Positions 2,648 through 52,554 are shown, counted from the stretch's first letter. The stretch is 64,000 nucleotides of DNA from Promethearchaeota archaeon (GCA_048939765.1 JBHLPF010000010.1:11723-75722); one strand, 5' to 3'. Numbers and translations are program-made. Notes: generated from the sequence alone by a model not told the origin.

Positions 2648-3226
2648 ATGCTGATTTCTCAAGCAAGCAAGGAGTGGTACGACCTGGCAGAAGTCTACAA
2701 GGCTATTGTTCTTGGCCCGCCAAATGTGGGGAAAAGCTCACTGATTAGACGCTATCAGGCAGGGGAATTTAGTGATGGGTACACTGCCACTGTCGGAATG
2801 GACATGAAAGCAGCTACGTTTGACTTCCCAGACGGTTCTGTTGTCCTCACAGTTGTTGACATCGGAGGACAGTCAACTTTCACGGGTCTAAGAAGCCGTT
2901 TTTTTGCTGGTTCTCATCATATGATTCTTGTCTTTGACAAGACTGACCGATCCACGTTTGACTCGATTCCAGAGTGGCATGGATCATTGACTAAGAATGT
3001 GAACATACCTGAGAAGCTCTTCCCAAGAGGGTCCCTTGTAGGGAATAAGGCCGATTTGAAGGACCAAGAGGCAGTCACTGCGGAGGAGGGGGAAAGGATG
3101 GCGGATATCTTGACTTTGACCTATTTTGAGGCAAGTGCCAAAACGGGGCTGAATGTCGCAGAACTCTTTCTGAATGCTGCGACTGAATCCAGGCAGCTGG
3201 TCAAGACACGAGCCAGAGAGGCATAA
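2648..3226 (+). CDS. Ras-superfamily (Rab/Arf-like) small GTPase
   Basis: G1 is GPPNVGKS, G3 is DIGGQ, G4 is GNKADL and G5 is EASAKTG. There is no C-terminal Cys or CAAX box. Confidence 0.9.
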   Translation: MLISQASKEWYDLAEVYKAIVLGPPNVGKSSLIRRYQAGEFSDGYTATVGMDMKAATFDFPDGSVVLTVVDIGGQSTFTGLRSRFFAGSHHMILVFDKTDRSTFDSIPEWHGSLTKNVNIPEKLFPRGSLVGNKADLKDQEAVTAEEGERMADILTLTYFEASAKTGLNVAELFLNAATESRQLVKTRAREA

Positions 3227-8968: not shown

Positions 8969-11290
8969 ATGAAGCACATCAATCGAAGAATAATTCTAGG
9001 GGTGACAATTGCGCTTGCATTTCTGATGGGATCCCAAATCACTCCCGTCGCCGCACTGCAGACGCAGATTGTCATCGAGAAATACAATCAGGCGTTCCAG
9101 TATGGAGCGAATAATCATACCTATCTGTATCTTGAGCCAAACCCGCTAGACCGTGTATCTCGTGCCACTATTCATTTGAATGAGGATCTTGACTACTATA
9201 GATACTCATACGATAATACTGGCTGGGCGCGTACTCAGTCTTCGGGTTCTGAACCAGCCAATTCTCCATTTTATTGGATGAATTACCAAGGCTTCGCAAC
9301 AGGTACGTACGGAAATCCTACCCGGCTCCCGAACTTCTACGACTTCACAGCTTCTGACGGTAGCGGAGTAGTTGTTAATACTACGCTGGAAACAAGGACA
9401 TTCTCATTGGCCTTTGGTCAGCATACTCCAGTCATGATCGAACGGGATTCTGTTTACTTCGGAACACTTCCAGTCACTGGACAAGAGTTTGTGCATCTGA
9501 CAATAGACTGTAGACAAGATGACGTGTCATGGAGTGTCAGTGTTGTGGATCCAGAAGGTCGATTCATGGCCTCAACAAGCGGATCCAACGGTGATATAGT
9601 GTTGATTCCATTCAATCCCTCAGTTGATGGAACATATCTCGTAATTCTACAGGCAACTCCTGGATCGACCCTCAATACACTTTTCGACATTTTTCCAGCA
9701 GCAGTGTCGCCTCAGAGGATTGGGATAGACGAGGTTGTCACAGGGGTATTGCCCACTGGTGAAATAGTCCTAAATGATGAAACTGGCAGTCTCGTCCATA
9801 AAGAACTGGCTCCCACAGCTCACACCTACAAGTTTTGGTCGCCAGATAGTCTTGCATCCATCAGCTATTCTTACAACTATCCTGAGATGTTCGTGGGCAT
9901 AACTCAGCCGCCTGCCATATTCTTTACTAGTGATTCTTTCGAGTACGGATATGATGGCGGTTCGCGATATGTCGATGCTATTGGCTCCCCTACGTCTGGT
10001 GATTACAACTACATCGGTGACACGCATTACGTCACCGTCATGGGGGGTGACAACATAGAATACACATTGTATCATCGAGCAATTGATGAAAGCCCACTTC
10101 CTGTGAACCAGGAGTTCCAGATCGAGAACTACTTCAGCACGACAGATACCAGGGCTTATCGATTGACCCTTGAGGAGGACTCGATTCTAAGGGTGAACTC
10201 TACTGCTGGCGGCGGTGATTTCACCATTAGAACTGTGGCGGAGTATGAGGATGGATATCGTGTCGAACGGTCCATCACCGATGCAGCCACTCTTGCTGGT
10301 GCCACAGACTACTACATGCCTGCAGGCGACTATATGGTCGAAATTGGCGTTGCCAGTGGCGTGAATGAGTGGATTGAATTCAACTTGGGCCCCATAACGA
10401 CTGAAGCAGAAGCAGATATAGTCTGCATGGGTGGATTCTACGTCCCAACAAGTGTCTTCCAGTTGTATAATCTATCATTATATCTGGAGAACCATGACAA
10501 TGTCACCGTGTCACTTGACATAACAGTGAGAGACTTGTCTGACGTATCCCTGGCCGACTTCAACGTCGACCTGGCAAACTGGTGGGATGGGTCATCTCTG
10601 ATGACAAATCCTTCAGATCCGAACAATGTAACCTACATGCTGGGATCTAGAATCTGGCATGATGACTTAGCTTTTGTGGGAATCTGTGCGTACGATATGG
10701 CAAACAACACCGTAGGAGCGACAAACCATTACCAAGACTACCCTGTGAATCTCACAATTGAATGGGTGAATAGGCTAAGCGAGTTCTATAGTGACACCAC
10801 AGCTTTGGAGGTAGCTTCCTCGGTGGACTCACATAACTTCACATTGTCACTACCAGGGAATTCCGTGGAGTACTACGGTGTGGACCTAAACACCACTAGG
10901 GGAACATGGTACAATGTGTCAATCCGTACTGGAGATGTCAACACATTCCAAGCAGTTCTCTTCAGCGAAGTGGACGGACGGTCTCATGACACTGCCTGGA
11001 GTGACTTGAATGATGCTCTGACTGGGAGTCTACCAGACATATCATTCCAGTTCGGAGCAATATCCGAAGTATCACATCTGCAGATCTATACCGCGAGGAA
11101 TTTGGCTACGGACGGATTTCTATGGATACAAATCACTCCAATGGTGACACATATGCTGGAACTTCCTCAGATATCACCAGTTGGACCTGACATTCTAGCG
11201 ATTCTAGGCACTATCGCCCTGCCAGTTGGATTGGGTGTTGCTGTCATAGTCGTGGTCTACGTTATCTATGTCAAGAAGTTCAAAGACTGA
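8969..11290 (+). CDS. large cell-surface protein (signal peptide, sequon-rich ectodomain, C-terminal TM anchor)
   Basis: The N-terminus is MKHINRRIILGVTIALAFLMGSQITPVAA. There are many N-x-S/T sequons. Repeated beta-sandwich-like segments loosely resemble PPC domains. The C-terminus is GPDILAILGTIALPVGLGVAVIVVVYVIYVKKFKD. Confidence 0.7.
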   Translation: MKHINRRIILGVTIALAFLMGSQITPVAALQTQIVIEKYNQAFQYGANNHTYLYLEPNPLDRVSRATIHLNEDLDYYRYSYDNTGWARTQSSGSEPANSPFYWMNYQGFATGTYGNPTRLPNFYDFTASDGSGVVVNTTLETRTFSLAFGQHTPVMIERDSVYFGTLPVTGQEFVHLTIDCRQDDVSWSVSVVDPEGRFMASTSGSNGDIVLIPFNPSVDGTYLVILQATPGSTLNTLFDIFPAAVSPQRIGIDEVVTGVLPTGEIVLNDETGSLVHKELAPTAHTYKFWSPDSLASISYSYNYPEMFVGITQPPAIFFTSDSFEYGYDGGSRYVDAIGSPTSGDYNYIGDTHYVTVMGGDNIEYTLYHRAIDESPLPVNQEFQIENYFSTTDTRAYRLTLEEDSILRVNSTAGGGDFTIRTVAEYEDGYRVERSITDAATLAGATDYYMPAGDYMVEIGVASGVNEWIEFNLGPITTEAEADIVCMGGFYVPTSVFQLYNLSLYLENHDNVTVSLDITVRDLSDVSLADFNVDLANWWDGSSLMTNPSDPNNVTYMLGSRIWHDDLAFVGICAYDMANNTVGATNHYQDYPVNLTIEWVNRLSEFYSDTTALEVASSVDSHNFTLSLPGNSVEYYGVDLNTTRGTWYNVSIRTGDVNTFQAVLFSEVDGRSHDTAWSDLNDALTGSLPDISFQFGAISEVSHLQIYTARNLATDGFLWIQITPMVTHMLELPQISPVGPDILAILGTIALPVGLGVAVIVVVYVIYVKKFKD

Positions 11291-16188: not shown

Positions 16189-16232
16189 ACATATAGGTGG
16201 AGTTATCTCTGGGGCAAATCATCTGATTGCCA

Positions 16233-16757
16233 ATGAAACGCGTCTTAGTGCTTGGACCATCCGGGTCCGGAAAGTCCACCTTCGCAGAGAATCTTGCCAG
16301 AGTGTTGGGTGTTCCTTGTATCCATTTGGATTCACATTATTGGAAGCCAAACTGGGTGGAAGCACCCGAGGAAGAATGGTTTGAAGTTGTGAGTGAGCTA
16401 ATCTTGCAGGATGAATGGGTCATGGATGGTAACTATTCATCTACACTTGAGATGAGAATCAAGCGAGCTGATACAGCAATATTCCTTGATGTCCCGAGGA
16501 GGGTATCATTTTGGCGTGTGTTCAAGAGGAGGCTGTTGCATAGAGGACAGGTACGTCCAGAGCTTGCTCCAGGTTGCTATGAGAAGATAGACCTTGACTT
16601 CATCAAGTGGATATGGAACTATCCGACGAGAAGTCGCCCGGTAATAGACAAGATTCTTTCTCAGAACTCTGGAAGCAAAACAATCATAGTTCTGAAAAAC
16701 TCAAGAGAAGCTACCGAATTCCTATCTAAGATGAGAATTGAATCCTCAGCCAACTGA
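16233..16757 (+). CDS. P-loop NTPase, adenylate-kinase-like (FlaR/topology-modulation-protein-like family)
   Basis: MKRVLVLGPSGSGKSTFAENLA is followed by HLDSHYW, a family-typical layout. I preferred the ATG at 16233 over the TTG at 16227. The 3' end overlaps the convergent giant ORF by 12 nt. Confidence 0.75.
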   Translation: MKRVLVLGPSGSGKSTFAENLARVLGVPCIHLDSHYWKPNWVEAPEEEWFEVVSELILQDEWVMDGNYSSTLEMRIKRADTAIFLDVPRRVSFWRVFKRRLLHRGQVRPELAPGCYEKIDLDFIKWIWNYPTRSRPVIDKILSQNSGSKTIIVLKNSREATEFLSKMRIESSAN

Positions 16758-19700
16758 TACCCATTCGAGGCCGGTTGTTATGCCAAACGCCGCAATAGAT
16801 GCTACAAGTGCAATTAGAACAATCAATCGCAGATAGACTAGTCTTGGGTTCATTGCTTCTCTCTCCTTGATGTAACGACTCACAAAGAGAAGAAACGCAG
16901 CTGTGGCTAGTAGTAGACTCTGATATACGGGTCCCAGAACGAATGTGTACGCAAATCCTGTCAGTGCAAAGAAGAGCGGCGATAGAAACAGTTGTCTTGC
17001 ACTTCTTGCTGTCACCGGATAGAAGATTATTGAAGCCACAAATACTCCTAGATAAATCCCCGCAACTTGGTCAAATGGCGGTATTATCAGAATGTACGAG
17101 CTGAGGTATGCAATGACCCCTGTCATGATGGCCAATAGACTCCACAGCAATTCTCTCTGAGTCTTCGGAACCCAATTCACTGTTGTTGAGAGTAAGTAAA
17201 GCATGAATGTCGGAGTGAATGATAATAGCATCGCAAGTAAGAGTGAATCCAGCGTGCTTGAACTTGGTAGCATGTAGTAGAACAGTGATGCGGAAATGCT
17301 TGGTGGGATTGGCAGCCAGAGCAAGGCTATGCGTCTTGGATCAAGCTGTAGCTCTCCTTTGAGCATTAAACCGGTCCCACATACTGCGATTATCGCTGAG
17401 AAAAAGGATAGAACTTGATACCCGTGATCAAAGAGAAACACAATTGCAGTGATTCCTCCACCAAATGCGGCATAGAGTCCGCTAAAAAGACCAAAGCGCG
17501 TTCTGACCCGCCGTCGTACGATTGCGATGAAAAGCATCATGAGCCCGATGATTGCGGTCGGTATCGAGAAGCCTGGAATTTCATAGAACAGCCCTGTTGG
17601 CGGCATATTCAGAAGCTCACTGAAGAGTGGTCTACTTAATACTCCAATTACAGCGACAAACAGCAAAGCAAAGAAAGCCCACGCGACATACCCGAAGCTT
17701 CTGAAGATTCTTAGCAAGAAGCTTCCAAGATTCCTGATGGCCTTGACAAGGATTGCCCCATAGCGACCAAGAATAGCCAAGAAGGCTCTTACCTGCGTCC
17801 AGAATACAGGTGCTTCTACTACAAGGAGAATAAGAGTCGCATATACTAGGGCATGTATCGGCTGCAAGCCGCCGATGGAAGTGAATCCTGTCAAAGCTGC
17901 CACGAATAGGGATATCCCCAGAATCCCGGCATTCCTTCTCATCCATACCTTCTGTGAAAACGAACTGACTTGCGCAAGAGTCGCAACCAAAGCAAGAGAT
18001 GTAGCTAATGACAAGCTGAATAATAGCTCAAGAAGATCGTAGGATTCTGCCGTCATGGACATGAGAAGTATGAGGTTGTTAACGCCAAATCCGATCAGGA
18101 TTGCAGAAGGCGACTGAAGCTCTTCTCCGATAGGCGGCTCCAACGCAGCTGCTTCAAACCAATAGAGTAAGCCTACCAGCACCAGACCAACGGTAATCGA
18201 GAAAGCTAGATTTCTGTAGGGCAGCCCAAGAATGGCTGAAGTATCCAAGGGATCATAGACCCACAAGGATACTAGACCCGCTATCAAGACGGGTAGAATT
18301 GTGGCGAACTTGGCTCTGTTGCTCCTGTAGATTTCTTCGGCCCAGGACAGGAATCGAGAAAATGCAGCAGCTAGTTGTTTGCCCTTAGTAGCTAGCCATC
18401 CGAGGAAGGTGATTGTCGCTGCAAGAGTCAATGGCAAGCTTAGTATATACCATACGAGGAGAAAGAGCGCAATCAACTCCGCAGTCCCAAGGATTGGCTC
18501 AGCCCAAATCCAGACTCCTCCAGCGACGGCTGAGGCTAAAATGATGATATCACCCATGAATAGCGTTCTTGGCCTCGCAGGTGTAATGAGATAGAGAATG
18601 AGCAGAGCCAGGGCAAGTCCGAGTCCTGCTACTGTAAGTATGAAACGTATTTCTCCGAGAAGATTTGCACCCATTTGTGCACCGAGCGCAGCCCATCCAG
18701 CAATGCTTGGACTCCAGCTATATCGGGCAGTAAGATGGTCTTCATTGATCTTCAATTTACCCTCAATTAGAAGATAGGCTGGCGTGGATAGTACGGAGAA
18801 CAATGATAGAATGATGCCTGCGGCAAGATATGGCTCTGCAGGAGGAGCTAGTCCATACAAGTCCCAACCGGATATGAAGGAGCCTAAAGATATTGATATT
18901 GAAACACTAACAACACTCCAAAGAATTCGAAAAACATCCCATGGTATCGCACCTCTCAAAGGCAGTAGAATCACGGGAGTCAGAAGTAAGCCTACTCCTG
19001 CGAGAATGACATTTGTGTCAAAGAGGAATACTAGCAAGGAATGCCAGACCCATATGACTTCGAGCATAGCGATTAATGTAGCAACCGCAATGTTAGTGAC
19101 TCCCGCATTGTCCTCATGTCCTTTGGGATCGGTTAGTCTAAGAGAACTCAATAGAAAAACAGCCGTTGTAACACAAAGCCACAGCGATTCCATTGAACGG
19201 TAATATGTGTACCAGCTGAATGAAACCATCGCGGTTGTAACGAGGCAAGATACCATCCAGCTGGCGCGTTTGAATGTTTCTCCTTTGGAAAGAACTGCTG
19301 TGAATGCAAGAAGCGGGATTCCTGCTATATATGCAGAATATAACCCGTCTACTAGCATGATTTCCCAAAGGTATGAGAATATCAGGAAGCAGAGATTGAA
19401 GACTGCAACGGACTGAAGCCCCACGAGTATTTCCGCAGAAATGAAGTTCCTCATTGAAAGAGCGAGAATTATTGTTGCAGATAGACTCGATAGACCCAAC
19501 TCCATCAGAGGCTCTCTAAGCGGGCTCGGTGTGGGAATCCATGAAATAACCAGTAGATACACTGAAGCACCAACCAAAGCGGCGCGAGTTATACCCAAGA
19601 ATATTCCAGTCTTTTCGCCGATACTCAGATGTGGGGTGAAGCGAAGGATTTCAAGGGCCACCAACGCCGCAAGCACGAGATTGATGGTCATGAATGGGCT

Positions 19701-22700
19701 CAAGACTAATGCTATACTCATACCAGTTGAAACTGCAAACACAGTCCACGTCGCCTTGGTCCTGAGCTGCTCAGGTATTGAGACCAACATTGATTCAACT
19801 GCAATATAACCAGCAATGACAAGTGCCGCATCCAGGCTGTACAAATAGAAATGCCAAAACAGAAAGGCAAGCAAAGCACCTGTGACAATTGGATAGGCAA
19901 GAAGCACCCTATTGGCTCTGCTGATAACTGGTGTCGCAATGAGCCCAACACCAAATATGGCTAGAAATACCTTGGAAGTAGGATCAAATGGTGCCAAATA
20001 GAGACCTAGCAGCAATGCAACGCTAATTGCGAATGCCGCTGATGGAACTTGCTGCTTGAAGAAAATCATCACTGGCATCAATAATGTGAATAAAACTGAG
20101 AAGAGAGCAACTGAGCCTAGTATGCTAAGAATGGGGTCAGTTAGCTGGAGCAGAATGACCAAGTCCAGGCTGACTGCTGCACAGAGAGTAACAAGAGCCA
20201 CCGAATGGAGCCGCAGATTCTCTGACCTGCGAAGATGAAGGGCGGGTAACCAAGTGCACATACAAGTAAGGATGAAGGTAAGAGAAATTGGTATGAGTGG
20301 CACTGAATGAAATGAGAAGAGTGGTATCAAGTAGTAGACCAACAATGAAGCAATGAGGATCGAAAGGAAGGCAATAGCCGCTACAAGATGAATCGCGATG
20401 TACGCTAGGAAAACTCGAAGTGCCATCAACGCAGCAGTTCCAATAGAGAGAATTGCATTCCAATACTTCCTATAGGCGGCAGGAATTGGGATCAAGAACA
20501 AAACGCCCAGACTAAGGATGTAGTTGGCATAGAATAGATGCACCAAGAATGTAGCAGCGGGAACGGTGAGTGCGAGGTAGAAACCGTTGATGATTCGGGG
20601 TGGTGCGCCCATCAATCTCAGTGGCAGCAATCCGAATCCAAATAGTGCAAGTGCAGAGAGGGCTGACTGAAGCTCCCCATAACTCAAGATTGCTTCGAGA
20701 TATATCCATGTGCATACCAGAGTGAGCATCATGAGCCAGGTTGTCGGGATGAAGTAGACTCTGATAGGCTCAGGGAATTTGTTGTTGGTCAATGTCATCG
20801 CAAGGCAGATAGCTGATACAGATGCAAGAAAGCGAATTGCTGTATGCAGCATTTCGGTGTAGAAGAAAACAAGAACTCCTAGCCCCAACGCCGCTCCCAA
20901 TATGCAAATCTGAAAGAGATAGGAAGGGGGTTCTTCAGCCCGCCCAATTGCAGGAGCATATGCTAGGAAGAAAGCCAAAGCGATCCAACCAATAATCGGT
21001 ATTGGATTGTAACTATAGAATGGCGCAAGCCACTGCAAAGCCACGAACGCTAGTCCGACGAGCACAAATACCGCCCAAGATATGAGGATGAATTTTAGCA
21101 GGAATCGACCGATGGATATGAGCGCATGATGAATGGCTGCTCCAAGTCTGCGGACTCCTTGCACAATAGCTCTTCCGGCTCTTATGGCCGCATCTGATAT
21201 CCATCTCCCGGCTTTGCGGTATTCGATATGGAGAACAGGCCCAGGTAGGACAGCAAGTAGCAGCAGTGTCACTACGGGTAGCCGGTTCGACTGGAGGGGA
21301 TCTTCAAACATCAAGGCCAAAGAAACTGCTGCAAGTAGCCCAGGCAAATATGCTGTTCCAGTGTAGATTCGATTTACTCCAAGCTTCAATAGCGCAATCG
21401 AACCTAGGAACCAGAGCAGGGAATAGGACAATGAACCGATAACATCGATTGATATGATGTAGTAGAATTGCCAGAAGGTAACCAAGGCCAATGACCCAAG
21501 AAACATGATCAATGCTATAGATAGGAAGCGATGGCGATTTGGTAGGCTTCGAAAGATTGAGAGGCCGACAATACCCATTCCAGCAAACACAGCGGCTTGT
21601 ACACCAAGAATCGAAATCGGGTATCCTGGCAGGGGCTGTAGCATTGGATTGATGTAGCTGAATAGAAAGATGCAGAGAGTAAGATCAGCAACAATCCCGG
21701 TAATGAGCATATTGCTCAGAATCCATGCCTTGAGGTCTCTAAGATGACCTACTAAGGAAATCCAAATCCGTTTCCAAATTCTTCGTATCCATCTGAAGAG
21801 ACCTGTCATTCCTGCGACAAATAAGACAAACGATGTTGTGAATGAAACGAGCAGCGGCCAGAGATAATATTGGGTCCAGAGATAGCCACTAGCAGATGCA
21901 AAGAGTACTATAGCCACTCCGATAGCTCTTACAATTATGTATTCCGAATCCCTTGTCAGCCGCTGGCCCAACCTGAAAAGAACTGGAGATGGAGCAAGAA
22001 TGAGTAATCCGATGATGAGCGCAATTGGGCCTATTAGTTGAATTTCCGTTCCCCATATGGTCGACTCGGCTAGCCAGAGGAAGATAGATGGAATACCTGA
22101 AGCCGCAAGAATGAGTGAAATCCCTGACAGGGTGTTGGCATCTTCTGGAACAATTATCCATTCTTCAGGAATTGGTACACTCTCTTCATCCTCCTCAAGC
22201 GCGGCGCTCAGTCCTACTTCTACAAGAATAGAGTCGCGGCCCTTCTTCTTCTGTGATTTGCGCACCCATCTTGTGCCCGCCCATGATTGCAGGCGCTTGG
22301 CGCATTGGGAGGCAAAGAATAGCGCCGCGCCGAGGACCACCAGAAATCCAGACACCAATAGCACGGGTGATAGAATAGAGGAGTTGATCATGTAGTCAAC
22401 TATCAATACAGATGGAGCTAGTGAAATGATGATAACATTAGGTACACCCAATCGAGCATATTTCTGTAGATATTGAAGGGCAATTATATAGACGGAAAGA
22501 GCCCCAATGAAGCCTGCTAGGATGAAGAATATAGCAGAAGTGGTTTCCGATAGCCAAAGTGCAATTGCAAGTGGGCCCGTCAACAAGATAGGTGGACCCA
22601 AGGCCCACCCGACTCTATGAAAGGTTTCATCCGAGATTCCTTCCCTGTTTCGCAGGCTATTCAAAATCCCAATCGATGCCAATAGAAATCCATGAAGGCT

Positions 22701-23006
22701 CAGAATAGATGTTTGCAATGATGCCAATAATAGAGCTAGCGTGAGAGCAATGATTCCTGCACTCAGAAAAAGGAGTATTGTACCGGGAAATAGCCTTCTT
22801 CTCCATACTAGGATTAGACCTGCGAGTGCAAGGCTAACAGATGTTGCGACCAGCATCTGAACCAGGCTGTCCCTGACAAATGGCTGAATGAGAAAATAGG
22901 AAGCTAGCCAAACTGCTGCTGATACGATAAGGAGTACTACAATGAAGGCAAAGAGCTGAATCCTATCTGCCCAAAGACTCGCTCTTTCGAATCCTTTTTC
23001 CTGCAT
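16746..23006 (-). CDS. giant (2,086 aa) polytopic integral membrane protein, unknown family
   Basis: This is a single uninterrupted 6.26-kb ORF. Hydrophobic helix-length segments run essentially end to end. The only long hydrophilic loop is at about aa 233-290. Confidence 0.85.
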   Translation of the reverse strand: MQEKGFERASLWADRIQLFAFIVVLLIVSAAVWLASYFLIQPFVRDSLVQMLVATSVSLALAGLILVWRRRLFPGTILLFLSAGIIALTLALLLASLQTSILSLHGFLLASIGILNSLRNREGISDETFHRVGWALGPPILLTGPLAIALWLSETTSAIFFILAGFIGALSVYIIALQYLQKYARLGVPNVIIISLAPSVLIVDYMINSSILSPVLLVSGFLVVLGAALFFASQCAKRLQSWAGTRWVRKSQKKKGRDSILVEVGLSAALEEDEESVPIPEEWIIVPEDANTLSGISLILAASGIPSIFLWLAESTIWGTEIQLIGPIALIIGLLILAPSPVLFRLGQRLTRDSEYIIVRAIGVAIVLFASASGYLWTQYYLWPLLVSFTTSFVLFVAGMTGLFRWIRRIWKRIWISLVGHLRDLKAWILSNMLITGIVADLTLCIFLFSYINPMLQPLPGYPISILGVQAAVFAGMGIVGLSIFRSLPNRHRFLSIALIMFLGSLALVTFWQFYYIISIDVIGSLSYSLLWFLGSIALLKLGVNRIYTGTAYLPGLLAAVSLALMFEDPLQSNRLPVVTLLLLAVLPGPVLHIEYRKAGRWISDAAIRAGRAIVQGVRRLGAAIHHALISIGRFLLKFILISWAVFVLVGLAFVALQWLAPFYSYNPIPIIGWIALAFFLAYAPAIGRAEEPPSYLFQICILGAALGLGVLVFFYTEMLHTAIRFLASVSAICLAMTLTNNKFPEPIRVYFIPTTWLMMLTLVCTWIYLEAILSYGELQSALSALALFGFGLLPLRLMGAPPRIINGFYLALTVPAATFLVHLFYANYILSLGVLFLIPIPAAYRKYWNAILSIGTAALMALRVFLAYIAIHLVAAIAFLSILIASLLVYYLIPLFSFHSVPLIPISLTFILTCMCTWLPALHLRRSENLRLHSVALVTLCAAVSLDLVILLQLTDPILSILGSVALFSVLFTLLMPVMIFFKQQVPSAAFAISVALLLGLYLAPFDPTSKVFLAIFGVGLIATPVISRANRVLLAYPIVTGALLAFLFWHFYLYSLDAALVIAGYIAVESMLVSIPEQLRTKATWTVFAVSTGMSIALVLSPFMTINLVLAALVALEILRFTPHLSIGEKTGIFLGITRAALVGASVYLLVISWIPTPSPLREPLMELGLSSLSATIILALSMRNFISAEILVGLQSVAVFNLCFLIFSYLWEIMLVDGLYSAYIAGIPLLAFTAVLSKGETFKRASWMVSCLVTTAMVSFSWYTYYRSMESLWLCVTTAVFLLSSLRLTDPKGHEDNAGVTNIAVATLIAMLEVIWVWHSLLVFLFDTNVILAGVGLLLTPVILLPLRGAIPWDVFRILWSVVSVSISISLGSFISGWDLYGLAPPAEPYLAAGIILSLFSVLSTPAYLLIEGKLKINEDHLTARYSWSPSIAGWAALGAQMGANLLGEIRFILTVAGLGLALALLILYLITPARPRTLFMGDIIILASAVAGGVWIWAEPILGTAELIALFLLVWYILSLPLTLAATITFLGWLATKGKQLAAAFSRFLSWAEEIYRSNRAKFATILPVLIAGLVSLWVYDPLDTSAILGLPYRNLAFSITVGLVLVGLLYWFEAAALEPPIGEELQSPSAILIGFGVNNLILLMSMTAESYDLLELLFSLSLATSLALVATLAQVSSFSQKVWMRRNAGILGISLFVAALTGFTSIGGLQPIHALVYATLILLVVEAPVFWTQVRAFLAILGRYGAILVKAIRNLGSFLLRIFRSFGYVAWAFFALLFVAVIGVLSRPLFSELLNMPPTGLFYEIPGFSIPTAIIGLMMLFIAIVRRRVRTRFGLFSGLYAAFGGGITAIVFLFDHGYQVLSFFSAIIAVCGTGLMLKGELQLDPRRIALLWLPIPPSISASLFYYMLPSSSTLDSLLLAMLLSFTPTFMLYLLSTTVNWVPKTQRELLWSLLAIMTGVIAYLSSYILIIPPFDQVAGIYLGVFVASIIFYPVTARSARQLFLSPLFFALTGFAYTFVLGPVYQSLLLATAAFLLFVSRYIKEREAMNPRLVYLRLIVLIALVASIAAFGITTGLEWVSVG

Positions 23007-23212
23007 CTACATCCCCGAATACCATCGCGAATCCACAGAAAATTGGCGTCTTCTAAGGCAGAAGTAATCCTGTGGTGGCATGTAATATTGGGGTATTTCC
23101 ATTAATAAATTCGCTTTGTTTGATTGAAACGCTTCAAGCAATCCTTTTATCGACAATTTCGATGGATAGAGCATTTGGCTTGTTCATGATAATGCCATCT
23201 GAGGGGTGAAGC

Positions 23213-23749
23213 ATGCCAGAGAAAGTAGAATGCCGCTATTGCGGCGCTATAAATGACTTAGGCGAGCCAGAGTGTGCTAATTGCGGAGCGAACCTTTCCG
23301 ATGCAATCACACATGTTGCATGCGACAGATGTGGAATCCTCCTTAGAGAAGGGACGGATCCGGTAGGACATTGTATCGTGTGCCAGACACCCGTTTTTCT
23401 TTGTGATAGACACAAGAAGAGAGTGGAGGATGATGAAGTCTATTGCAGAGAACATGAAACTGAGTGCTTCATCGCTACAGCTGTCTTTGGGACTCCACTC
23501 CATCCAGAAATTGACCTCCTAAGGAGATTCAGAGACGAATGGCTTTCAAGCAGGCTAATAGGCCGCATCGCAATTCGGACCTACTATGATGTATCTCCCC
23601 CCATTGCTCGATGCGCCAGGCGAAATGAACGAAGGAGGAGGATTCTTCAGCGATTGATAGTGGAACCAGGCCTCAAGCTTGCGCGGACGGTTTTGGGAAG
23701 AGAGTCACATCCTCTGCCCTTGGAAAAGGGCAACTCAAAACGGAGATAG
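23213..23749 (+). CDS. multi-zinc-ribbon protein with a C-terminal CFIATA...LRxFRD module
   Basis: CxxC pairs are present: CRYCG..CANCG, CDRCG..CIVCQ and CDRH..CREH. These are followed by [28 protein letters not shown]...[16 protein letters not shown] lies upstream of the ATG. Confidence 0.7.
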
Positions 23750-28535: not shown

Positions 28536-28751
28536 TGAAAGTTCGCTATTGTTTTCTGCTTATTAGATTGAGCATTCGGTACTTCAAAAATAGCTAGGCC
28601 GCATCACCATTCCTAGGAGCAGGTCATGGGAACCAAAGTCTAGATTCTGCCCTTGCTCGATATCACCTGCGTATTATCGCTCATATGTTTGGATAGCCAA
28701 GATATCCTTTTCAAAAGATAGCGGACTGATTAATCTCTCGAGTTGTGTTGG

Positions 28752-31028
28752 ATGAATAGACACCAGAAACGAGCACTGACAAAAATAGCTATTTTTGTAC
28801 CATTGGCATTGCTGGCCATAGGAGTAGCTATTGGAGTCTTGGATATCGTTTCCATCACAGAAACCGCTCGAGTAGCAGCTCACTCGCTTCTATCATATTG
28901 GGTATCAATCCCAGCAGCCATCCTTGTTCTGGCGTTTGTTAGGCGTCCCTCGAGATCATTGGCAGCATTCGCGGCCGCGCTCCTCTTTCCTATCATGGTG
29001 AACATTGGAAGTGCAATCAGCTACAGGACTTACCTCTTAGCTCCCTCCGGGGTAAAGAATCTCTCCAATCTTGTGACAGACATATACGAGTGTGCAGTTT
29101 TTGGCGTCCTCATCTTGGTAGCTCTGACTCTGCGCCAAGATCCAAGCAAAGAGAAGGGAATGACAGCTCGCAAGGGCATTGTGATTGGATTCGCCTCTGT
29201 ATTAATCCTTGGAGCTCTTTACGGTGTCATATGGTTCTTCCTGATTCCGCTCATGACTCCTGAGGTTCTAATCTATTTCGGGAGTTCCACGGCGCTCTCC
29301 GGTATCGTGATGACACTTGGCGCCGTCTATTTATTGCTCAAAAATGGATACGAGGAGCCTTCCGTAGACATCGGCTATTTTGCAAGTGCTTGCATACTCT
29401 CTGCGATTGCTATTTGTATATTAGTAGCAGAACTCTTCCTTTCATCCGCCCTCTGGATATACGCGGAAACAATACAGATGGCTTCCTACTTTTTGATTAC
29501 GATTTCCCTCTGTGTTCCCTTTCTTAGAAATGCTGGATACAAGCGGATGACAGCATATCTCATTGTTGTTGCTCTGGCTTTACTCTCCTATCTGCCTTTC
29601 ACCATCACTATAGAGATTGAAGCAGCAGAACTCTACGGTTCTCTGTACTTGAACACCCTAGCATTTTCAATCATTCATATCGGAGTTGGATCTCTTTCGA
29701 TTATGATGGGCTTTCTCCTCTTCGCATATTCGAGGCGACACCCATCGAGAAACCTCTATGCCCTTATCATGTTGTTCGTGCTCTGGGCTGAAGTGTCTGC
29801 AGTTTCGGTGCTAACAGTATTGCCACTCGGATTCACGCTTCTCGGAGAGCCGATTGTTTCGTATCTGGTTGGCAGCATTCTATCAATCCCTCTCTTGTAT
29901 TTAGCCATACGTTGGACTCCGAAGAATCATCTGCAAGAGGCGAGCCCTCCTTCAACATGGCTCCTTCTTGCAGGATCATTCATCATGTTAGGAGCCATAT
30001 TAGCTGGAGAGGTTGGGAATCAACTTGTTCTACAACGGTACATATGGCTTTCTGGAAGCCCTCTCAGCAACTCACTACTTCTGTTTGCAAACTTACTGCT
30101 TATCTTCTTAATTGCATACTTGCTATTCACACAGGCTGAGATTTCTGGTGGTCAGACTTCAATAGAAGTCTATGTCGTCCTATTCTTGTCGATGTGGATA
30201 GTCCCGAATGTGCTAAAGAGCTATTACGATATATGGACTGCCGGCTGGTGGGTTTCAGAGATTCTGATATTGCTTGCTCTAATGATTGGTCCTGCATTTC
30301 TAGGACTTCTATATATGCGTGCGTTGCAGGATTTAGAAGACTCTCATTCAAAAGCGACGCTTTATGCAGACCTTCTCATGCATGACATCAGCAATTACCA
30401 TCAAATGCTTCTCACGGCCGTAGAGCTCCTAGGAGAGGAAGAAACATCGATTGAGCAGCGAGAACGTCTATCGGGTGATGCATATCATGTAATCTCTCTT
30501 GCGGAGCAGCTCATCACCAATGTACGCCTTATAACTGAGAGTGAGGGTCTCCAGAGAGAATCCCTCATTCCATTGAATCTAATGGAAACACTTGTTGAGT
30601 CTTTGGATCGGGTTATGAGAATAGCTGGGGGCAGGGGAGTAAAATTGCAATTGATGCCATTCAGCGCACAAGCCTTTGTCCTCGGCAGCGATGTGTTGAA
30701 ACATGTCTTCATTAATATCATCCATGGCGTTTTACTGCAGCCACTGGATGCCCAAAGAATTAGTATCGAAATCCAGCCACGCGTAGAGATGGGCTCTGAA
30801 TATTGGATGGTTAGAATTTTCGTTCCGAACTGGTGGCTGGATATACAGAGCGATGTGTCCGCTCCCGGAGCGCAAGAGGACTTCAGTGGCACCGCATTAG
30901 GCCTTCTAGTGTCAAGGCTTGTTACAGAATCTCTTGGTGGGACCCTAACCGTTCTAAAGAGAATGGAAGAACCAGATATGGGTACATCATTCTATGTTCT
31001 TCTTCCAGCATGTGAAAGAGATTCTTGA
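28752..31028 (+). CDS. membrane-embedded sensor histidine kinase (large multi-TM sensor and possibly degenerate ATP lid)
   Basis: About 500 aa of TM helices precede the H-box LLMHDISNYHQML and a HATPase-like end GTALGLLVSRLVTESLGGTL. I see no clear DxGxG G1 box. The ATG at 28752 is used as the start. Confidence 0.7.
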   Translation: MNRHQKRALTKIAIFVPLALLAIGVAIGVLDIVSITETARVAAHSLLSYWVSIPAAILVLAFVRRPSRSLAAFAAALLFPIMVNIGSAISYRTYLLAPSGVKNLSNLVTDIYECAVFGVLILVALTLRQDPSKEKGMTARKGIVIGFASVLILGALYGVIWFFLIPLMTPEVLIYFGSSTALSGIVMTLGAVYLLLKNGYEEPSVDIGYFASACILSAIAICILVAELFLSSALWIYAETIQMASYFLITISLCVPFLRNAGYKRMTAYLIVVALALLSYLPFTITIEIEAAELYGSLYLNTLAFSIIHIGVGSLSIMMGFLLFAYSRRHPSRNLYALIMLFVLWAEVSAVSVLTVLPLGFTLLGEPIVSYLVGSILSIPLLYLAIRWTPKNHLQEASPPSTWLLLAGSFIMLGAILAGEVGNQLVLQRYIWLSGSPLSNSLLLFANLLLIFLIAYLLFTQAEISGGQTSIEVYVVLFLSMWIVPNVLKSYYDIWTAGWWVSEILILLALMIGPAFLGLLYMRALQDLEDSHSKATLYADLLMHDISNYHQMLLTAVELLGEEETSIEQRERLSGDAYHVISLAEQLITNVRLITESEGLQRESLIPLNLMETLVESLDRVMRIAGGRGVKLQLMPFSAQAFVLGSDVLKHVFINIIHGVLLQPLDAQRISIEIQPRVEMGSEYWMVRIFVPNWWLDIQSDVSAPGAQEDFSGTALGLLVSRLVTESLGGTLTVLKRMEEPDMGTSFYVLLPACERDS

Positions 31029-33121: not shown

Positions 33122-35431
33122 CTATTGGCCTGCCTGTCTTGGTCTTACTACAGCAAAGTATACGAAGACAACAGCCGCGAGTGCGATTGCCAGTCCTAAT
33201 GTTAAGGGCAGGATGTCTATGGGGGGTGGGATGTCTATAGGGGTTGTAGGCGTTGAAGTTGATTCTGGAATATCATAACTGAATGTATCACTTACATCAT
33301 TTTTGCTGTAGACATCAAACGCCTGAACATAGTAATCAACATGTACTCCCTCAGATTCACCAGGGATGATTCCCCGGTAACCAAGACCAGATACGTAGAC
33401 CATAAGTAGGCTCGACCAAGCCCCATTGTCAACTCGATAACGGAGTGTAACATTGGATAATCCAGCATCAACTACACCTGCAAAAACCATGACCTCCTCG
33501 TTTGGCTCAGGTGACAATGGGATTTGCATTATGTCAGTGATCTCCGGAGCCAAATCAGAATAGAAGTATAGGTTGTCCATGAGGAATGTGAGTCCAGTAC
33601 CAGAGCCAGCATCTCCTTCCAAGCGAAATGAGGATATGCCAACTTCATCTGTCCAGCCAAATGCTTCTACATAGTCATGATATAGATCTCTGTGAGCCCA
33701 TTCCCAACTTCCTATTGAGTTGGCTGATTCTACTATGAAGGCAGCTTCGCTTGAGGTGTTCGCATTCACGGCAGTTTCATTATACATGAAGAAGTAGACG
33801 ATTTCCTTCTCGTCCCAAAATGTGACAGCTAAGGTTGCTCTCGAATATCCTCCACTATCAAACGAGTCACATCTCCACATCACATCGAGATATCTCTCAA
33901 GATCACTTGCGATGTAGCTATCTTCAAGCTCTTGAGACCTCTCAAAATAGTCGCTGGAACTGAGAGTCATATTGGCGGCCTTGCTTCCCTCATAGGCATC
34001 ATCTGTGACAGTGAAGAGAGAAGAAGTTTCAAAATATACATCTGAGCCCCACGCAACTATTTTTGCTCCGACTGAAGGCTGGTCCTCATACCCCATATCA
34101 TTGAGTGCCGCTGAAACAAGACCGAAATCATCAAAGAGTATAGAGATTCGAGCCCCAGGACTAGTGGTTTTGAACTCTATGCTAAAATCGAATATCGTCA
34201 AATCGAATAATACAGAAGCGCTAGCGTTGAAATAGCCTGAAGCTATCTCCCAGAGACTTGTATCCAGGTACATCCAGCTAGTGGTCGTGTTGAATCCCTC
34301 AACATGCAACACAAGAGTATCTGTGGCATTCTGCATCCATAGTGGCAAATCTCCGGCAGCAAACACCAAGTAGATGGCCATATCGTGAGTATCGTTTCTG
34401 CAATCCCAATAGAAATAGGCATATTCCTCGCCATTTAGTGAATCGACCGCATCAATTCTATAGGAAAGTCTGAAAGCATCCCGATTGATGTTTGTAAGTC
34501 GTGTAGAGATTTGCTTATTCATTGAACAGTCGCTCTGATTTCCATTCGATGAACTGGTGATATTCAGACTCCAATCACCAGAATGCGATTCGGTGCTTTG
34601 TGAGATTTCTGAGGCATCTCGATTGCCACCAACTGGCGTCCAATCAGCAGCGGATGTTTTGGTTTCAAAATTGCCATTCTTGGTTGACGCTGAAATGTAT
34701 TCGATATCGCCGTTTTCTAAGCGAACATCATCTATGAAAGCACGTGCGAACTGGTTTGTAGAACCCTTGTGTCCAACATAGAACTGAAGATTGTACAAGG
34801 TCCTTTCCAGCTCCATGCTTCCGAAGTTATCAACGTAGTCCCGAGTCACATTTCGATAGAATGAGTTCCATATATGCTCGGTGCCTCCAATGATGTAGTA
34901 GAGGCGGGACGATGTATTGCTCGCTGCTGGACTCCCGCTGAAGTAATACCAGATTATTTTCTCATTGGAGAATACTTCAGTGAACCGGAATCTTACTGCA
35001 AAGTAGTCCTCGTCCATAAGAGGATTAGGCATCGAGTCGGCAAACCAGTCGAACTCGACTGTGAGATTGTCAACATCTATTCCCCAAGTGCTTTGTTGCC
35101 AGACAGCCTCTGCGGGGTGCTGGTCGTCAAGTGCACGAGCCTGCATCCCTCCGGAATAGATTCCCTCATTATGAGGCCAAGGATCAGTCGCGTTCCAGCA
35201 GTAGTGTTCTGTCGACCGACTCGTATAGAAACCATCTGGATCGCTTGGGAATTCCCATCTCTCGAAATTCCCATTTGGTATGTTATTCTCTGTCCAATCA
35301 GCTCTTGTCAAGTCAGTGTCTGAAGTTACATGGGACTTGAAAGTCATAGCTGGTACCTTCTCAGAATAAGTGAATGTGCTGAAAGCTAGAACCAACACAA
35401 TAGCAAAAGCAGACAATGATACGTGGCGCAT
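33122..35431 (-). CDS. large cell-surface protein (signal/anchor N-terminus, sequon-rich ectodomain, Thr/Pro linker, C-terminal TM anchor)
   Basis: The ATG at 35431 gives MRHVSLSAFAIVLVLAFSTFTYS. Modules beginning with NGNFE suggest jelly-roll or CBM-like folds. The C-terminus is STSTPTTPIDIPPPIDILPLTLGLAIALAAVVFVYFAVVRPRQAGQ. Confidence 0.7.
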   Translation of the reverse strand: MRHVSLSAFAIVLVLAFSTFTYSEKVPAMTFKSHVTSDTDLTRADWTENNIPNGNFERWEFPSDPDGFYTSRSTEHYCWNATDPWPHNEGIYSGGMQARALDDQHPAEAVWQQSTWGIDVDNLTVEFDWFADSMPNPLMDEDYFAVRFRFTEVFSNEKIIWYYFSGSPAASNTSSRLYYIIGGTEHIWNSFYRNVTRDYVDNFGSMELERTLYNLQFYVGHKGSTNQFARAFIDDVRLENGDIEYISASTKNGNFETKTSAADWTPVGGNRDASEISQSTESHSGDWSLNITSSSNGNQSDCSMNKQISTRLTNINRDAFRLSYRIDAVDSLNGEEYAYFYWDCRNDTHDMAIYLVFAAGDLPLWMQNATDTLVLHVEGFNTTTSWMYLDTSLWEIASGYFNASASVLFDLTIFDFSIEFKTTSPGARISILFDDFGLVSAALNDMGYEDQPSVGAKIVAWGSDVYFETSSLFTVTDDAYEGSKAANMTLSSSDYFERSQELEDSYIASDLERYLDVMWRCDSFDSGGYSRATLAVTFWDEKEIVYFFMYNETAVNANTSSEAAFIVESANSIGSWEWAHRDLYHDYVEAFGWTDEVGISSFRLEGDAGSGTGLTFLMDNLYFYSDLAPEITDIMQIPLSPEPNEEVMVFAGVVDAGLSNVTLRYRVDNGAWSSLLMVYVSGLGYRGIIPGESEGVHVDYYVQAFDVYSKNDVSDTFSYDIPESTSTPTTPIDIPPPIDILPLTLGLAIALAAVVFVYFAVVRPRQAGQ

Positions 35432-35618
35432 AGTATTCCCTCTCGACCTAGATTTGCACCAAGAATCACACAATAAACCTTTGTAGTGGCTCCCATTTTT
35501 GGTGGTGGTCGGATTGTACACGCGTTATTTCTGCTTTCTTTCAATGTGAATATATCAGCGTCAGGCAAATAAGGGCAGAATGCATTACGCCAGATTGCGA
35601 GGTAGAGGAACTGTGGCA

Positions 35619-46003: not shown

Positions 46004-48262
46004 ATGCTTCAAGTCATTGCAAGAGCTCTTGATCGAGATATTAGGAGGAAGATGCTAGCCGCAGGACTAGTGTCAGCGCTTATGGCTGTTAGTCTTGTGG
46101 GCACAATTGGCTATCTAGGTGGTGCTTTTGGTCCATTTGGATTGCTTTCTCATCCCAATGAACCAGTCTACACAATCAACAACATTGTGACTAGCAACTT
46201 TGCAGACTTCCAACCACGTGAAGAGCCGTTCATACCAAATGCGCCATTATACACCGTTGATCCCGGTCTTTCCAATGTTGCTGGCTATGGATTGATTGAA
46301 AACCTTCCTGCAGATTTGCTTCTCCAGATAGAATACAATGGTTTTGCTGCGGCCACTCAAACGGAATACAAGCAAATCCATGAGATATTGGAATTGAACG
46401 AAAAGCAATCAATTCCAAGCTTTGTGTCCTCAGACGCTGTGTTGCACGCGTTCCACGTTCTCTATGACCTGTCTCTTAGGGAAGTTGAAGTCTATTCTTT
46501 CTGGGATCTTCTCGGTAATCTGACATCCTCAATGCTGGACTCATCCTTTAACCAATACTTAGCAGCTCCTGAAGGCAGATGGAAGGATGCTGCTTTAAGA
46601 AACATGATGCTCTTCACAGTCGCTCTCAAGCTCATCGACAGCAACTACATGATTCCTCCAGCATTCCCATTTCAGGTTGACATTGAGGTTGCAAAGGTGC
46701 TCTCCCTGATTGAAGCGCACGATGCTATATCGGATGAATGGTTCCAAGAATACCGAGAAGACTTCACTCAATTCGTGCCACGGGGACATTACACTCGCAG
46801 TGAAACTCTTGAGCGTTACTTCAAAGCAATGATGTGGTATGGGAGAGTATCTCTGCGATTGCAGCCCAATCTTCCTGAATTCCCAAACGAAAAAGGCAAG
46901 GATAATACTGCCCAGGCGATTCTCATCTCATTGGCCCTCATGGATGAGATATCCACCATGCCAGCCGGGATCACAGGTTATGACTTATGGGATGCAATCT
47001 ATGAACCCACAGTCTTCTTTGTAGGTGCTGCTGATGACCTTTTACCAAGTGAGTACTTGGAGCTGGTCCAAACCATCTACGGCTCTGAGATTACTATTCC
47101 TGACCTTGATGATGATGTTCTTTTAGAGAATTTCATTGATGCTGCTCTGGAGTTGCGAGAACCAGCAATCTTAGGTCATCCTGTACCGGATACACTGACC
47201 TTAGCCCAGACTATGGGACTTCGGTTCATGGGGCAGAGGTACATTCCAGATAGCTACATCCTGGGGCAACTAGTCTACAAGAATGTAGGAACCATGGCGA
47301 ATCCAAGACTCATGCCTATGGGCCTCGATGTGATGGCTGCTCTGGGCTCTGATAGAGCTTGGGAACTCCTTGAGCCCGAGAAGATCTACGCGAACTATGA
47401 ATCGCAGATGAACATGCTCTGGGACATGGTGGCCAATATCACCGAGGCTGAATGGACAAGCAACCTATACTATCTATGGTTGTACTCTCTTCTACCCCTT
47501 CTATCTGATCCGGGGGAAGGCTATCCTTTCTTTATGCAGACTGAAGCGTGGGTTGACAAGCAGCTGTCCACAGCACTGGGTTCATGGGCTGAACTTAGGC
47601 ATGATACGATTCTCTATGCCAAGCAGTCTTATACTTGGGAATTGACCGGAATGCCACCTCCTGTTAAGGGATATGTAGAGCCAGTTCCCCAAGTATATGC
47701 ACGTTTGGCCTCTTTGTGCGAGATGATGATTGATGGGCTTGATTCCAGGAGCCTGCTGTCCACTTCGATTGGCAGCAAGCTCAACGCCCTATACAGTCTT
47801 CTATTGAATCTTCAGACAATTTCTATAAAAGAGTTGGAGGGAACTCCTCTGACGGAGTCAGAATACTACCTCATCGAAGGCTGTGGAAAGACACTGGGAT
47901 CAATTGTTGCAATGCCACAGGATGACTACCTTACATCAGATGCTGACGATGACATGGCTGTCATCGCTGATGTTCACACCGACCCTAATACCTTTAGTGT
48001 GCTTGAAGAGGCTGTAGGAAGACCGATGGTCATCTATGTAGCTGTCGAAGTTGATGGACAAGTCATTCTCACCCGAGGAGGAATCTTCTCATACTACGAG
48101 TTCACTTGGCCAATGGATGACCGCCTCACAGACGAGGCATGGCAAGATATGCTCACCCAAGGTGAGGCGCCACCCCTTCCAACTTGGACTGCAAGCTTTG
48201 TGATCACCGCCGAAGTCACTTTGCCTGCATTAAATACACTCACCTCAAAGGAATCAGTTTAA
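46004..48262 (+). CDS. N-terminally anchored extracytoplasmic protein, DUF3160-like
   Basis: An N-terminal TM helix (MLAAGLVSALMAVSLVGTIGYL) is present. The FVPRGHYTRSE motif and the ~750-aa size match my recollection of DUF3160. Confidence 0.6.
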   Translation: MLQVIARALDRDIRRKMLAAGLVSALMAVSLVGTIGYLGGAFGPFGLLSHPNEPVYTINNIVTSNFADFQPREEPFIPNAPLYTVDPGLSNVAGYGLIENLPADLLLQIEYNGFAAATQTEYKQIHEILELNEKQSIPSFVSSDAVLHAFHVLYDLSLREVEVYSFWDLLGNLTSSMLDSSFNQYLAAPEGRWKDAALRNMMLFTVALKLIDSNYMIPPAFPFQVDIEVAKVLSLIEAHDAISDEWFQEYREDFTQFVPRGHYTRSETLERYFKAMMWYGRVSLRLQPNLPEFPNEKGKDNTAQAILISLALMDEISTMPAGITGYDLWDAIYEPTVFFVGAADDLLPSEYLELVQTIYGSEITIPDLDDDVLLENFIDAALELREPAILGHPVPDTLTLAQTMGLRFMGQRYIPDSYILGQLVYKNVGTMANPRLMPMGLDVMAALGSDRAWELLEPEKIYANYESQMNMLWDMVANITEAEWTSNLYYLWLYSLLPLLSDPGEGYPFFMQTEAWVDKQLSTALGSWAELRHDTILYAKQSYTWELTGMPPPVKGYVEPVPQVYARLASLCEMMIDGLDSRSLLSTSIGSKLNALYSLLLNLQTISIKELEGTPLTESEYYLIEGCGKTLGSIVAMPQDDYLTSDADDDMAVIADVHTDPNTFSVLEEAVGRPMVIYVAVEVDGQVILTRGGIFSYYEFTWPMDDRLTDEAWQDMLTQGEAPPLPTWTASFVITAEVTLPALNTLTSKESV

Positions 48263-52431: not shown

Positions 52432-52554
52432 ATGATTGTGGTTCTTACGAAAAGAATTATGTGCATTGATGTGAACCAACTTGTAGATACGTAGTGTGTG
52501 GAACTAGAGACTTGGGTCATTGTTACAGTATCTATTTCCTAGGAGAGTTTGAAA

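Follow-up and report, generated by a model that had tools for sequence, protein, structure and literature searches.

The 64,000-nucleotide window analyzed here (GCA_048939765.1 JBHLPF010000010.1:11723-75722, from a Promethearchaeota archaeon) raises the question of what a single polypeptide of 2,086 amino acids (aa), made largely of hydrophobic helices, might be and do. The original prediction for this locus, made without database searches, described one uninterrupted open reading frame (ORF) at 16746-23006 with probably more than 50 transmembrane helices, no signature of a known transporter class, and a probable Asgard setting. On comparative sequence evidence this ORF is a genuine protein-coding gene, and its product (here the giant protein) is predicted to cross the membrane some 67 times and belongs to a family that matches no known sequence family or, as far as structural models of moderate quality can show, any known fold. 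As to function, we tentatively favor an expandable membrane-embedded array joined to a conserved C-terminal functional core, possibly channel- or transport-like; other readings are considered where the relevant evidence is presented.

The giant gene and its predicted topology

16746-23006, minus strand: giant gene, 2,086 aa, about 67 predicted transmembrane helices, N-terminus predicted cytoplasmic

The ORF begins with ATG and extends through 2,086 codons in one frame, a stop-free run with a chance probability of about 1e-42 at the base composition of the region; the remaining five frames contain between 51 and 144 stops. T occupies the second codon position in 44% of codons, and the product has a grand average of hydropathy of +1.04 and a leucine content of 18.2%. 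Relatives drawn from independent assemblies (NCBI, ENA, JGI, and Logan) align end to end, and orthologues of 2,085 to 2,088 aa are collinear from start to stop with identical ends. Synonymous sites differ at 43 to 61% among close relatives, and the ratio of nonsynonymous to synonymous substitution rates (dN/dS) is 0.15 to 0.16 overall, as measured against the two orthologues with DNA retrieved. Across every 300-codon window dN/dS is 0.07 to 0.20, reflecting purifying selection along the full length. A Shine-Dalgarno-like box also stands ahead of an N-terminus that is conserved among relatives. Because of these collinear independent orthologues and the dN/dS values, the ORF is, for practical purposes, not a chimera, a hidden frameshift, or noncoding. 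The source is a metagenome-assembled genome (MAG), which gives some ground for suspecting an artefact such as a chimeric contig, a gene call fused over a frameshift, or a noncoding ORF that is hydrophobic through composition. The agreement among assemblies, the collinearity of distant members of 1,753 to 2,447 aa, the selection in every window, and a charge pattern conserved across the family (below) all argue against such an origin, and we consider its probability negligible.

Kyte-Doolittle hydropathy (19-aa window, >1.6) defines 58 nonoverlapping segments in the giant protein, and hydropathy averaged over 28 full-length family members defines 64 hydrophobic stretches. Two long stretches were split where AlphaFold2 places two helices, and a weakly hydrophobic helix at aa 1431-1450 was added to keep the charge pattern in phase, giving 67 segments, all of which correspond to distinct helices in two AlphaFold2 models; 61 helices pass a stricter hydrophobicity cut. 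The two half models are helical throughout with zero strands, and are of moderate confidence (predicted local distance difference test [pLDDT] scores of 69.6 and 63.1; predicted template modeling scores of 0.43 and 0.52). Lysine and arginine make up 102 of 645 residues in inside loops versus 7 of 275 in outside loops (67 spans; Fisher P = 3e-10, odds ratio 7.2), and the asymmetry is repeated in all nine homologues examined, with 95 to 109 inside versus 2 to 7 outside. Because the positive charges are split between alternate loops, the N-terminus and all of the long loops are predicted to be cytoplasmic. The prediction for the chain is thus some 67 membrane crossings (range 61 to 67, with 67 most likely) and an N-terminus inside, the count being derived from hydropathy, AlphaFold2 helices, and charge parity. 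The transmembrane segments hold 56% of the residues and the remainder is mostly short connectors; the predicted outside loops are short, with a median length of 7.5 aa and none longer than 22 aa.

The original prediction is borne out in these respects. The ORF is single and uninterrupted, independent orthologues of the same length speak against a misassembly or hidden frameshift, the helix count exceeds the 50 that were estimated by eye, and the membrane-embedded share is a majority of the length. The one long hydrophilic stretch expected near residues 233-290 is also the longest loop in our analysis (aa 233-293), and the other loops of at least 36 aa are amphipathic helices.

Modules, in-plane helices, and the C-terminal core

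The chain includes an N-terminal region, two repeat modules, and a conserved C-terminal core, with predicted in-plane helices along its length:

21543-23006, minus strand: N-terminal region, aa 1-488, TM1-14, including a probable half-module at aa 404-477 (segmentation and hhalign)
22128-22310, minus strand: hydrophilic loop, aa 233-293, predicted cytoplasmic, 61 residues with a basic and then an acidic stretch
21699-21806, minus strand: amphipathic Arg/Trp helix 1, aa 401-436, predicted cytoplasmic, hydrophobic moment 0.72
20775-21542, minus strand: repeat module A, aa 489-744, four transmembrane helices, a cytoplasmic amphipathic helix, and four further transmembrane helices
21114-21236, minus strand: amphipathic helix 2, aa 591-631, mid-module A, predicted cytoplasmic, hydrophobic moment 0.75
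20049-20768, minus strand: repeat module B, aa 747-986, with the same eight-helix layout as module A
20424-20483, minus strand: amphipathic helix 3, aa 842-861, mid-module B, predicted cytoplasmic (segmentation and hydrophobic moment scan)
19032-19091, minus strand: TM43, with the conserved in-membrane motif L-E1316-x-x-W-x-W-H (family alignment)
18303-18425, minus strand: amphipathic helix 4, aa 1528-1568, predicted cytoplasmic, hydrophobic moment 0.56
17682-17810, minus strand: amphipathic helix 5, aa 1733-1775, predicted cytoplasmic, hydrophobic moment 0.79
16749-17699, minus strand: C-terminal core, aa 1770-2086, TM57-67, the most conserved part by identity and dN/dS
17568-17633, minus strand: signature outside loop, aa 1792-1813, between TM57 and TM58, s-R-P-l-F-S-E-L-l-n-M-p..G.l-Y-e-v-P..S-i-P

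No internal repeat is evident when the giant protein is compared with itself by BLAST, and the modules are visible only by profile-profile comparison. In hhalign, modules A and B match with a probability of 98.2% (E 4.9e-14, 267 columns), and they have the junction motif P-x-x-H/Y-x-E/K-Y-R in common; module A also matches a module hidden Markov model (HMM), itself constructed from these very units, at an independent E value of 5e-85. The module is about 245 aa long with eight helices and is present in two copies in the giant protein of the window and in three to about four in homologues. It is here that family members differ in length, with one to two extra copies at module B in homologues: nine homologues carry a 223- to 236-aa insertion that is a third module copy (the 236-aa version matches module B with a probability of 99.8% and E 6e-28), and a 2,447-aa member (P0031) has about four. 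As judged from these profile alignments, part of the giant chain arose through tandem duplication of an eight-helix module. Weaker hhalign similarities pair aa 404-477 with 845-918 (score 37.5), 516-627 with 1659-1766, and 707-814 with 1902-2016; their scores of 33.5 to 37.5, versus a maximum of 31.1 in reversed-sequence controls, suggest the presence of older module copies.

On the cytoplasmic side, the chain is predicted to have five or more amphipathic helices rich in Arg and Trp, a type that lies flat on the inner membrane surface. The top five peaks of hydrophobic moment (aa 343-360, 398-415, 603-620, 1544-1561, and 1755-1772) all lie in predicted cytoplasmic loops rich in lysine and arginine and reach 0.56 to 0.79, versus a mean of 0.185 (standard deviation 0.13) for the whole protein. 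Helix 1 carries eight invariant residues (F404, R405, R408, W411, W415, R423, K426, and W428), and the long hydrophilic loop contains a family-wide motif (W283-x-I ... A-x-x-L-S-G), with AlphaFold2 pLDDT falling below 50 at aa 249-279.

The C-terminal core is under the tightest constraint. Identity to distant homologues is highest over aa 1801-2086 (0.39 to 0.53; 0.35 in the 1701-1800 window), and dN/dS is lowest (0.07) from codon 1801 to the end. The signature loop is both the longest outside loop (22 aa) and the strongest motif of the family, is followed by an invariant inside R-R-x-V, and is specific enough as a peptide pattern to recover the family out of 596 Gb of genomes. It could be re-entrant; AlphaFold2 confidence is lowest exactly at the core and this loop (pLDDT <50). 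In the alignment of 28 family sequences, 124 columns are conserved in 26 or more, and G, P, W, L, F, or Y accounts for 91 of them. Conserved ionizable residues within or at the edge of transmembrane segments number only about five (H105, R725, E1119, E1316, and R2060).

This pattern of conservation bears on whether the protein has an active site at all. It could instead be a pure structural scaffold with neither a catalytic nor a transport site, forming a large hydrophobic raft that would organize lipids or proteins, make the membrane stiffer or give protrusions their shape, and hold the zinc/CFI-box partner protein (below) in place. The predominance of G/P/W/L/F/Y among conserved positions with very few in-membrane charges, the variation in module copy number between species, the placement of the in-plane helices on one side only, and the lack of any transporter or enzyme family match (see below) are all as expected of a scaffold. 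In contrast, the core and one outside loop are so strongly constrained, with dN/dS at 0.07, as to suggest a specific site. Furthermore, a large polytopic protein that has no soluble domain is usually a transporter, a channel, or a membrane enzyme, and known membrane shapers are small. We view a scaffold without any active site as possible though somewhat unlikely in absolute terms, and almost as likely as an array with a functional core. The membrane-organizing or scaffolding role that the original prediction raised as a hypothesis agrees with this anatomy, but a conserved C-terminal core that carries the function would agree with it to the same degree.

Relatives and comparison with known membrane proteins

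A word-indexed search of 5.8 billion proteins with the giant sequence returned 18 relatives, and all of those with names come from Thorarchaeota or 'Promethearchaeota' MAGs. They include one 100% identical entry (ACFFBM_03445), seven orthologues of 2,085 to 2,088 aa that are 70 to 89% identical to the giant protein, and nine full-length homologues of 2,046 to 2,276 aa that are 30 to 37% identical; a second word-indexed search, with a family profile, yielded zero new relatives. When 1.84 billion cluster representatives were searched exhaustively with HMMER, using a profile of the C-terminal 1,007 residues (aa 1080-2086), just 37 proteins matched, all of which are full-length members (2,033 to 2,447 aa), a shorter divergent member that is collinear with the family HMM (P0046, 1,753 aa), or fragments, with none from another family. 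A scan of GTDB with one genome per species gave 12 loci (L numbers below), labeled as Thorarchaeota in ten cases, as Hermodarchaeota in two from a single MAG, and as 'uncultured archaeon' in one.

The two Hermodarchaeota loci (L003 and L004, in MAG DZ1M.409, labeled Candidatus Hermodarchaeota) are 79 to 85% identical and constitute a fully syntenic orthologue split over two contigs, which, set against the Thorarchaeota MAGs, suggests a labeling or binning inconsistency. The sequences recovered define a family of giant proteins of 1,753 to 2,447 aa that is so far found only in Thorarchaeota-type Asgard MAGs. The features by which we propose to recognize the family, and which the members and loci examined here display, are a length of 1,750 to 2,450 aa, more than 60 hydrophobic helices, one or more tandem eight-helix modules, a core with the FSEL-containing signature loop, and a divergently transcribed zinc-ribbon/CFI-box neighbor.

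The window also codes for three Ras/Roc/Arf-like small GTPases (2648-3226, 52549-53166, and 53305-53892, all on the plus strand; Pfam Ras E 1e-37 to 8e-42). Such GTPases are typical of the 'eukaryotic signature' proteins of Asgard archaea, and a related GTPase lies 2 to 3 kb from the giant gene in two distant loci (L014 and L016).

None of the sequence searches places the giant protein in a known family. Pfam and NCBIfam gave no match at E ≤ 10 beyond subthreshold noise, to which we consign matches to Coa3_cc, DCR, PGF-CTERM, and DUF7369; Pfam gave nothing at E ≤ 1 for 16 family members, and searches of the PDB with the giant protein, both single-sequence and profile, were empty. There is no Walker A motif in the giant protein, and no profile match (Pfam, NCBIfam, or PDB) to MFS, ABC, RND, P-type, APC, DMT, or MOP proteins. 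In other parts of the window, MFS, ABC-2, EamA, and P-type proteins are recognized without difficulty by this same Pfam scan. The original prediction had seen neither a P-loop nor an MFS, ABC, RND, or P-type signature, and the profile searches agree; they likewise give no sign that the protein is a concatenation of known transporter families, and its proposed Asgard setting is confirmed by the Thorarchaeota homologues and the three GTPases. Literature searches on Asgard giant proteins, transmembrane segment counts in Thorarchaeota, and proteins with more than 40 to 60 transmembrane helices found no description of the family.

Fold comparison gave no match either, with Foldseek searches of both AlphaFold2 halves against the PDB reaching a best E of 0.099 and template modeling scores (TM-scores) of at most 0.2, from models with pLDDT values of 63 to 70 that limit the power of the comparison. 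Because these models are only moderate, this negative is weaker than those from sequence. The hit lists are dominated by alpha-solenoids, with scattered weak matches to NuoL-type proteins, flippases, and POT transporters, and we rejected the alpha-solenoid and generic helical matches (E ≥ 0.1, TM-score ≤ 0.2) as evidence.

A novel transporter, or a lipid flippase or scramblase, built from fused and highly diverged transporter-like domains beyond the reach of sequence profiles is nonetheless a conceivable identity for the protein. Most proteins with more than 10 transmembrane helices are transporters, so that the base rate favors it; duplicated modules with even numbers of helices resemble the evolution of transporters, and the weak Foldseek matches to complex I NuoL-type subunits, Wzx/MurJ flippases, and POT proteins (E 0.25 to 4.5, TM-score ≤ 0.2) point the same way. 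All of these structural matches are, however, nonsignificant, and the lack of any Pfam signal in 16 members together with the empty NCBIfam and PDB sequence searches argues against the idea. The protein has no energizing domain and lacks the conserved in-membrane polar network expected of carriers, and stand-alone relatives with eight transmembrane helices were not found, either in the exhaustive search of aa 1080-2086 or in the word-indexed searches that covered modules 489-986. We therefore judge a diverged transporter unlikely.

Among transporter-like systems, the antiporter-like subunits of complex I and Mrp (NuoL and MrpA) resemble the giant protein in having long rows of transmembrane helices with a long lateral amphipathic helix. 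NuoL/MrpA-type proteins are the most frequent membrane-protein matches of the C-terminal half in Foldseek, at nonsignificant values (E 0.25 to 1.8, probability ≤ 0.41, TM-score 0.09 to 0.20). There is no Pfam match to Proton_antipo_M/N, and the conserved Lys/Glu chain of the antiporter-like subunits is not among the conserved residues of the giant protein, which has no conserved in-membrane lysine.

The closest analogy is to Piezo channels, although it is architectural only. Both have very many transmembrane helices per chain, a long array of repeated transmembrane bundles whose cytoplasmic amphipathic helices lie along the inner leaflet, and a C-terminal part that is the most conserved. Piezo is a homotrimer with a central pore, a mechanically gated current, and a large extracellular cap between two pore helices; the giant protein has no comparable cap domain, its largest predicted outside loop being 22 aa, and its repeat comprises eight transmembrane helices in variable number rather than the nine four-helix units of Piezo. 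Piezo Pfam models (TM/THU, anchor, and pore regions) do not match the giant protein at E ≤ 10 or any of the 16 members at E ≤ 1, and Piezo chains are absent from the top 50 Foldseek matches in the PDB for either half, from models of the pLDDT given above. At 38 transmembrane helices per protomer, Piezo channels are described in a review as having the most membrane passes discovered so far (PMC9256749), and the giant protein, at about 67, would nearly double this count. It is by analogy conceivable, if rather improbable, that the giant protein is an independently evolved Piezo-style channel sensing tension or curvature, in which the array would bend or read the membrane, the core and a re-entrant FSEL loop would form a pore, probably upon oligomerization, and the zinc/CFI-box partner would couple the channel to the cytoplasm.

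The partner gene and possible functions of the pair

The giant gene is accompanied by a divergently transcribed gene, separated from it by a short intergenic region:

23213-23749, plus strand: partner gene, 178 aa, zinc-ribbon/CFI-box protein, divergent from the giant gene
23007-23212, no strand: divergent intergenic region, 206 bp, between the giant gene and the partner gene

Two Cys4 zinc ribbons of the partner protein (C7/C10/C21/C24 and C37/C40/C54/C57) are invariant, as is a further C64/H67/C78/H81 site, and a CFI-box-CTERM domain occupies aa 85-149 (NF041770, 78.3 bits versus a cutoff of 40, over 65 of 69 positions). In contrast to other CFI-box-CTERM proteins of NF041770, the partner is a small protein in which three zinc sites precede the domain; no transmembrane helix is evident on inspection of the sequence. 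NCBI names its orthologues as CFI-box-CTERM proteins, and literature searches for the CFI-box domain or the CFIATAA motif found no paper on their function. The partner gene adjoins the giant gene divergently in every locus with upstream DNA (the window, L001/L003, L002, L007, L008, L010, and L013-L016) and is the sole neighbor conserved across the family, with other neighbors differing between clades. It is better conserved than the giant protein, with 52 to 61% identity versus 28 to 37%, and its full-length homologues (at least 50% identity) are labeled as Thorarchaeota only, among the minority with a source name.

Such pairing resembles the association of sortases with their substrates, and the giant protein might be a processing or sorting factor for its CFI-box partner, or else a membrane enzyme such as a GT-C-type glycosyltransferase, a polymerase/ligase, or a lipid-modifying enzyme. 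In favor, the conserved outside loop carries S1796 and E1797, and H105 and E1316 are also conserved. Proteins of the GT-C and Wzy types, however, have sizeable extracytoplasmic loops with conserved acidic or basic catalytic motifs, and the outside loops of the giant protein are too small for active sites of that type, nor does the protein have a Pfam match. No Cys/His/Arg catalytic triad is conserved across all 28 members, for which reason we rank a sortase-like processor low; CFI-box proteins are in addition widespread without a giant protein (NF041770 is generic, and P0098 is a protein of Halobacteriales), and the partner shows no transmembrane helix on inspection. Enzymatic or processing activity is, in our estimate, quite improbable.

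We thus return to the array with a functional core as our tentative preference. The array of eight-helix modules, with its one-sided in-plane helices, would give the protein a very large membrane footprint, which may sense or impose membrane shape, curvature, or tension. The C-terminal core, which has few conserved polar residues and bears the signature loop (outside or re-entrant), would be the active element, most plausibly a channel- or transport-like site, and the zinc/CFI-box partner may dock on, or regulate, the cytoplasmic face. Several points weigh against this interpretation. Curvature, oligomeric state, and any pore are pure conjecture, and a passive scaffold would account equally well for the variable module number and the scarcity of conserved polar residues. 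The adjacency of the partner gene could reflect a regulator and its target or a shared promoter region, not physical docking. Lastly, the exhaustive homology search covered the C-terminal half only, with the N-terminal half, including modules 489-986, covered by word-indexed search only, and the models are moderate and worst (pLDDT <50) in the C-terminal core itself, which limits the power of the fold searches.

Four close relatives have 89% identity over the intergenic region, although synonymous sites in the adjacent gene differ at 43 to 61%. Two elements only are kept family-wide, a TATA-like TTTTATC for the partner gene (in the window, CCTTTTATC at 23143-23151, plus strand) and a Shine-Dalgarno-like box for the giant gene (GGGGAT, 23011-23016, minus strand, 4 to 10 nt before the ATG). 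A leader of about 95 nt before the giant ATG is nearly invariant in close relatives and contains nested inverted repeats (CCACAG...CTGTGG and CTTCT...AGAAG); the RNA fold predicted for it lacks significant stability (z = -1.55), distant loci do not retain it, and an Rfam scan of the window gave no match.

In close relatives the whole neighborhood is syntenic with the window, and in the distant clade all but the partner has changed. An ABC-2 operon, a HEAT-repeat protein, a P-loop kinase, a helicase, an EamA transporter, and an HtrA protease were rejected as functional partners, since they are syntenic in the close clade only and missing in distant loci. At 16227-16757 (plus strand), the gene for a P-loop 'DNA topology modulation protein' (NF005994, 217 bits versus a cutoff of 215) is convergent with the giant gene, with a 12-nt overlap at the 3' end of the latter; it too is syntenic in the close clade only. 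The distant clade (L013-L016) has recurrent neighbors of its own, namely, OB_Ssb-like proteins, a protein of about 299 aa with a weak P-loop that adjoins the partner gene, and a response regulator with a protein of about 530 aa (531 aa) and no assigned family after it, none of which is beside the giant gene in the window clade. Further large ORFs of the window have no Pfam family above the gathering score: 8969-11290 (plus strand, 773 aa), 28743-31028 (plus strand, 761 aa; a weak HATPase_c tail only, E 0.001), and 33122-35521 (minus strand, 799 aa; subthreshold DUF3047 only, E 0.021). A 752-aa DUF3160 protein at 46004-48262 (plus strand; Pfam E 1e-189) is unrelated to the giant protein.

If the predicted topology holds, the giant protein is the most membrane-spanning single polypeptide described, with about 67 helices versus 38 for Piezo, and it raises the matter of how a chain of 67 spans is inserted and folded in the cell. 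The gene pair, with its defined modules and conserved motifs, is a concrete target for structural biology, and a variable-copy eight-helix membrane repeat would be a new design principle even in a passive scaffold. Should the Piezo-style channel prove true, the protein would combine the record number of transmembrane helices per polypeptide with a prokaryotic model for large-footprint force transduction or the shaping of protrusions in the lineage closest to eukaryotes. Because the family is confined to one Asgard lineage, it is plausibly a lineage-specific invention within an archaeal group that is used to reconstruct the origin of eukaryotic membranes, and it offers a test of whether Asgard archaea have membrane-shaping or mechanosensing machinery of their own.

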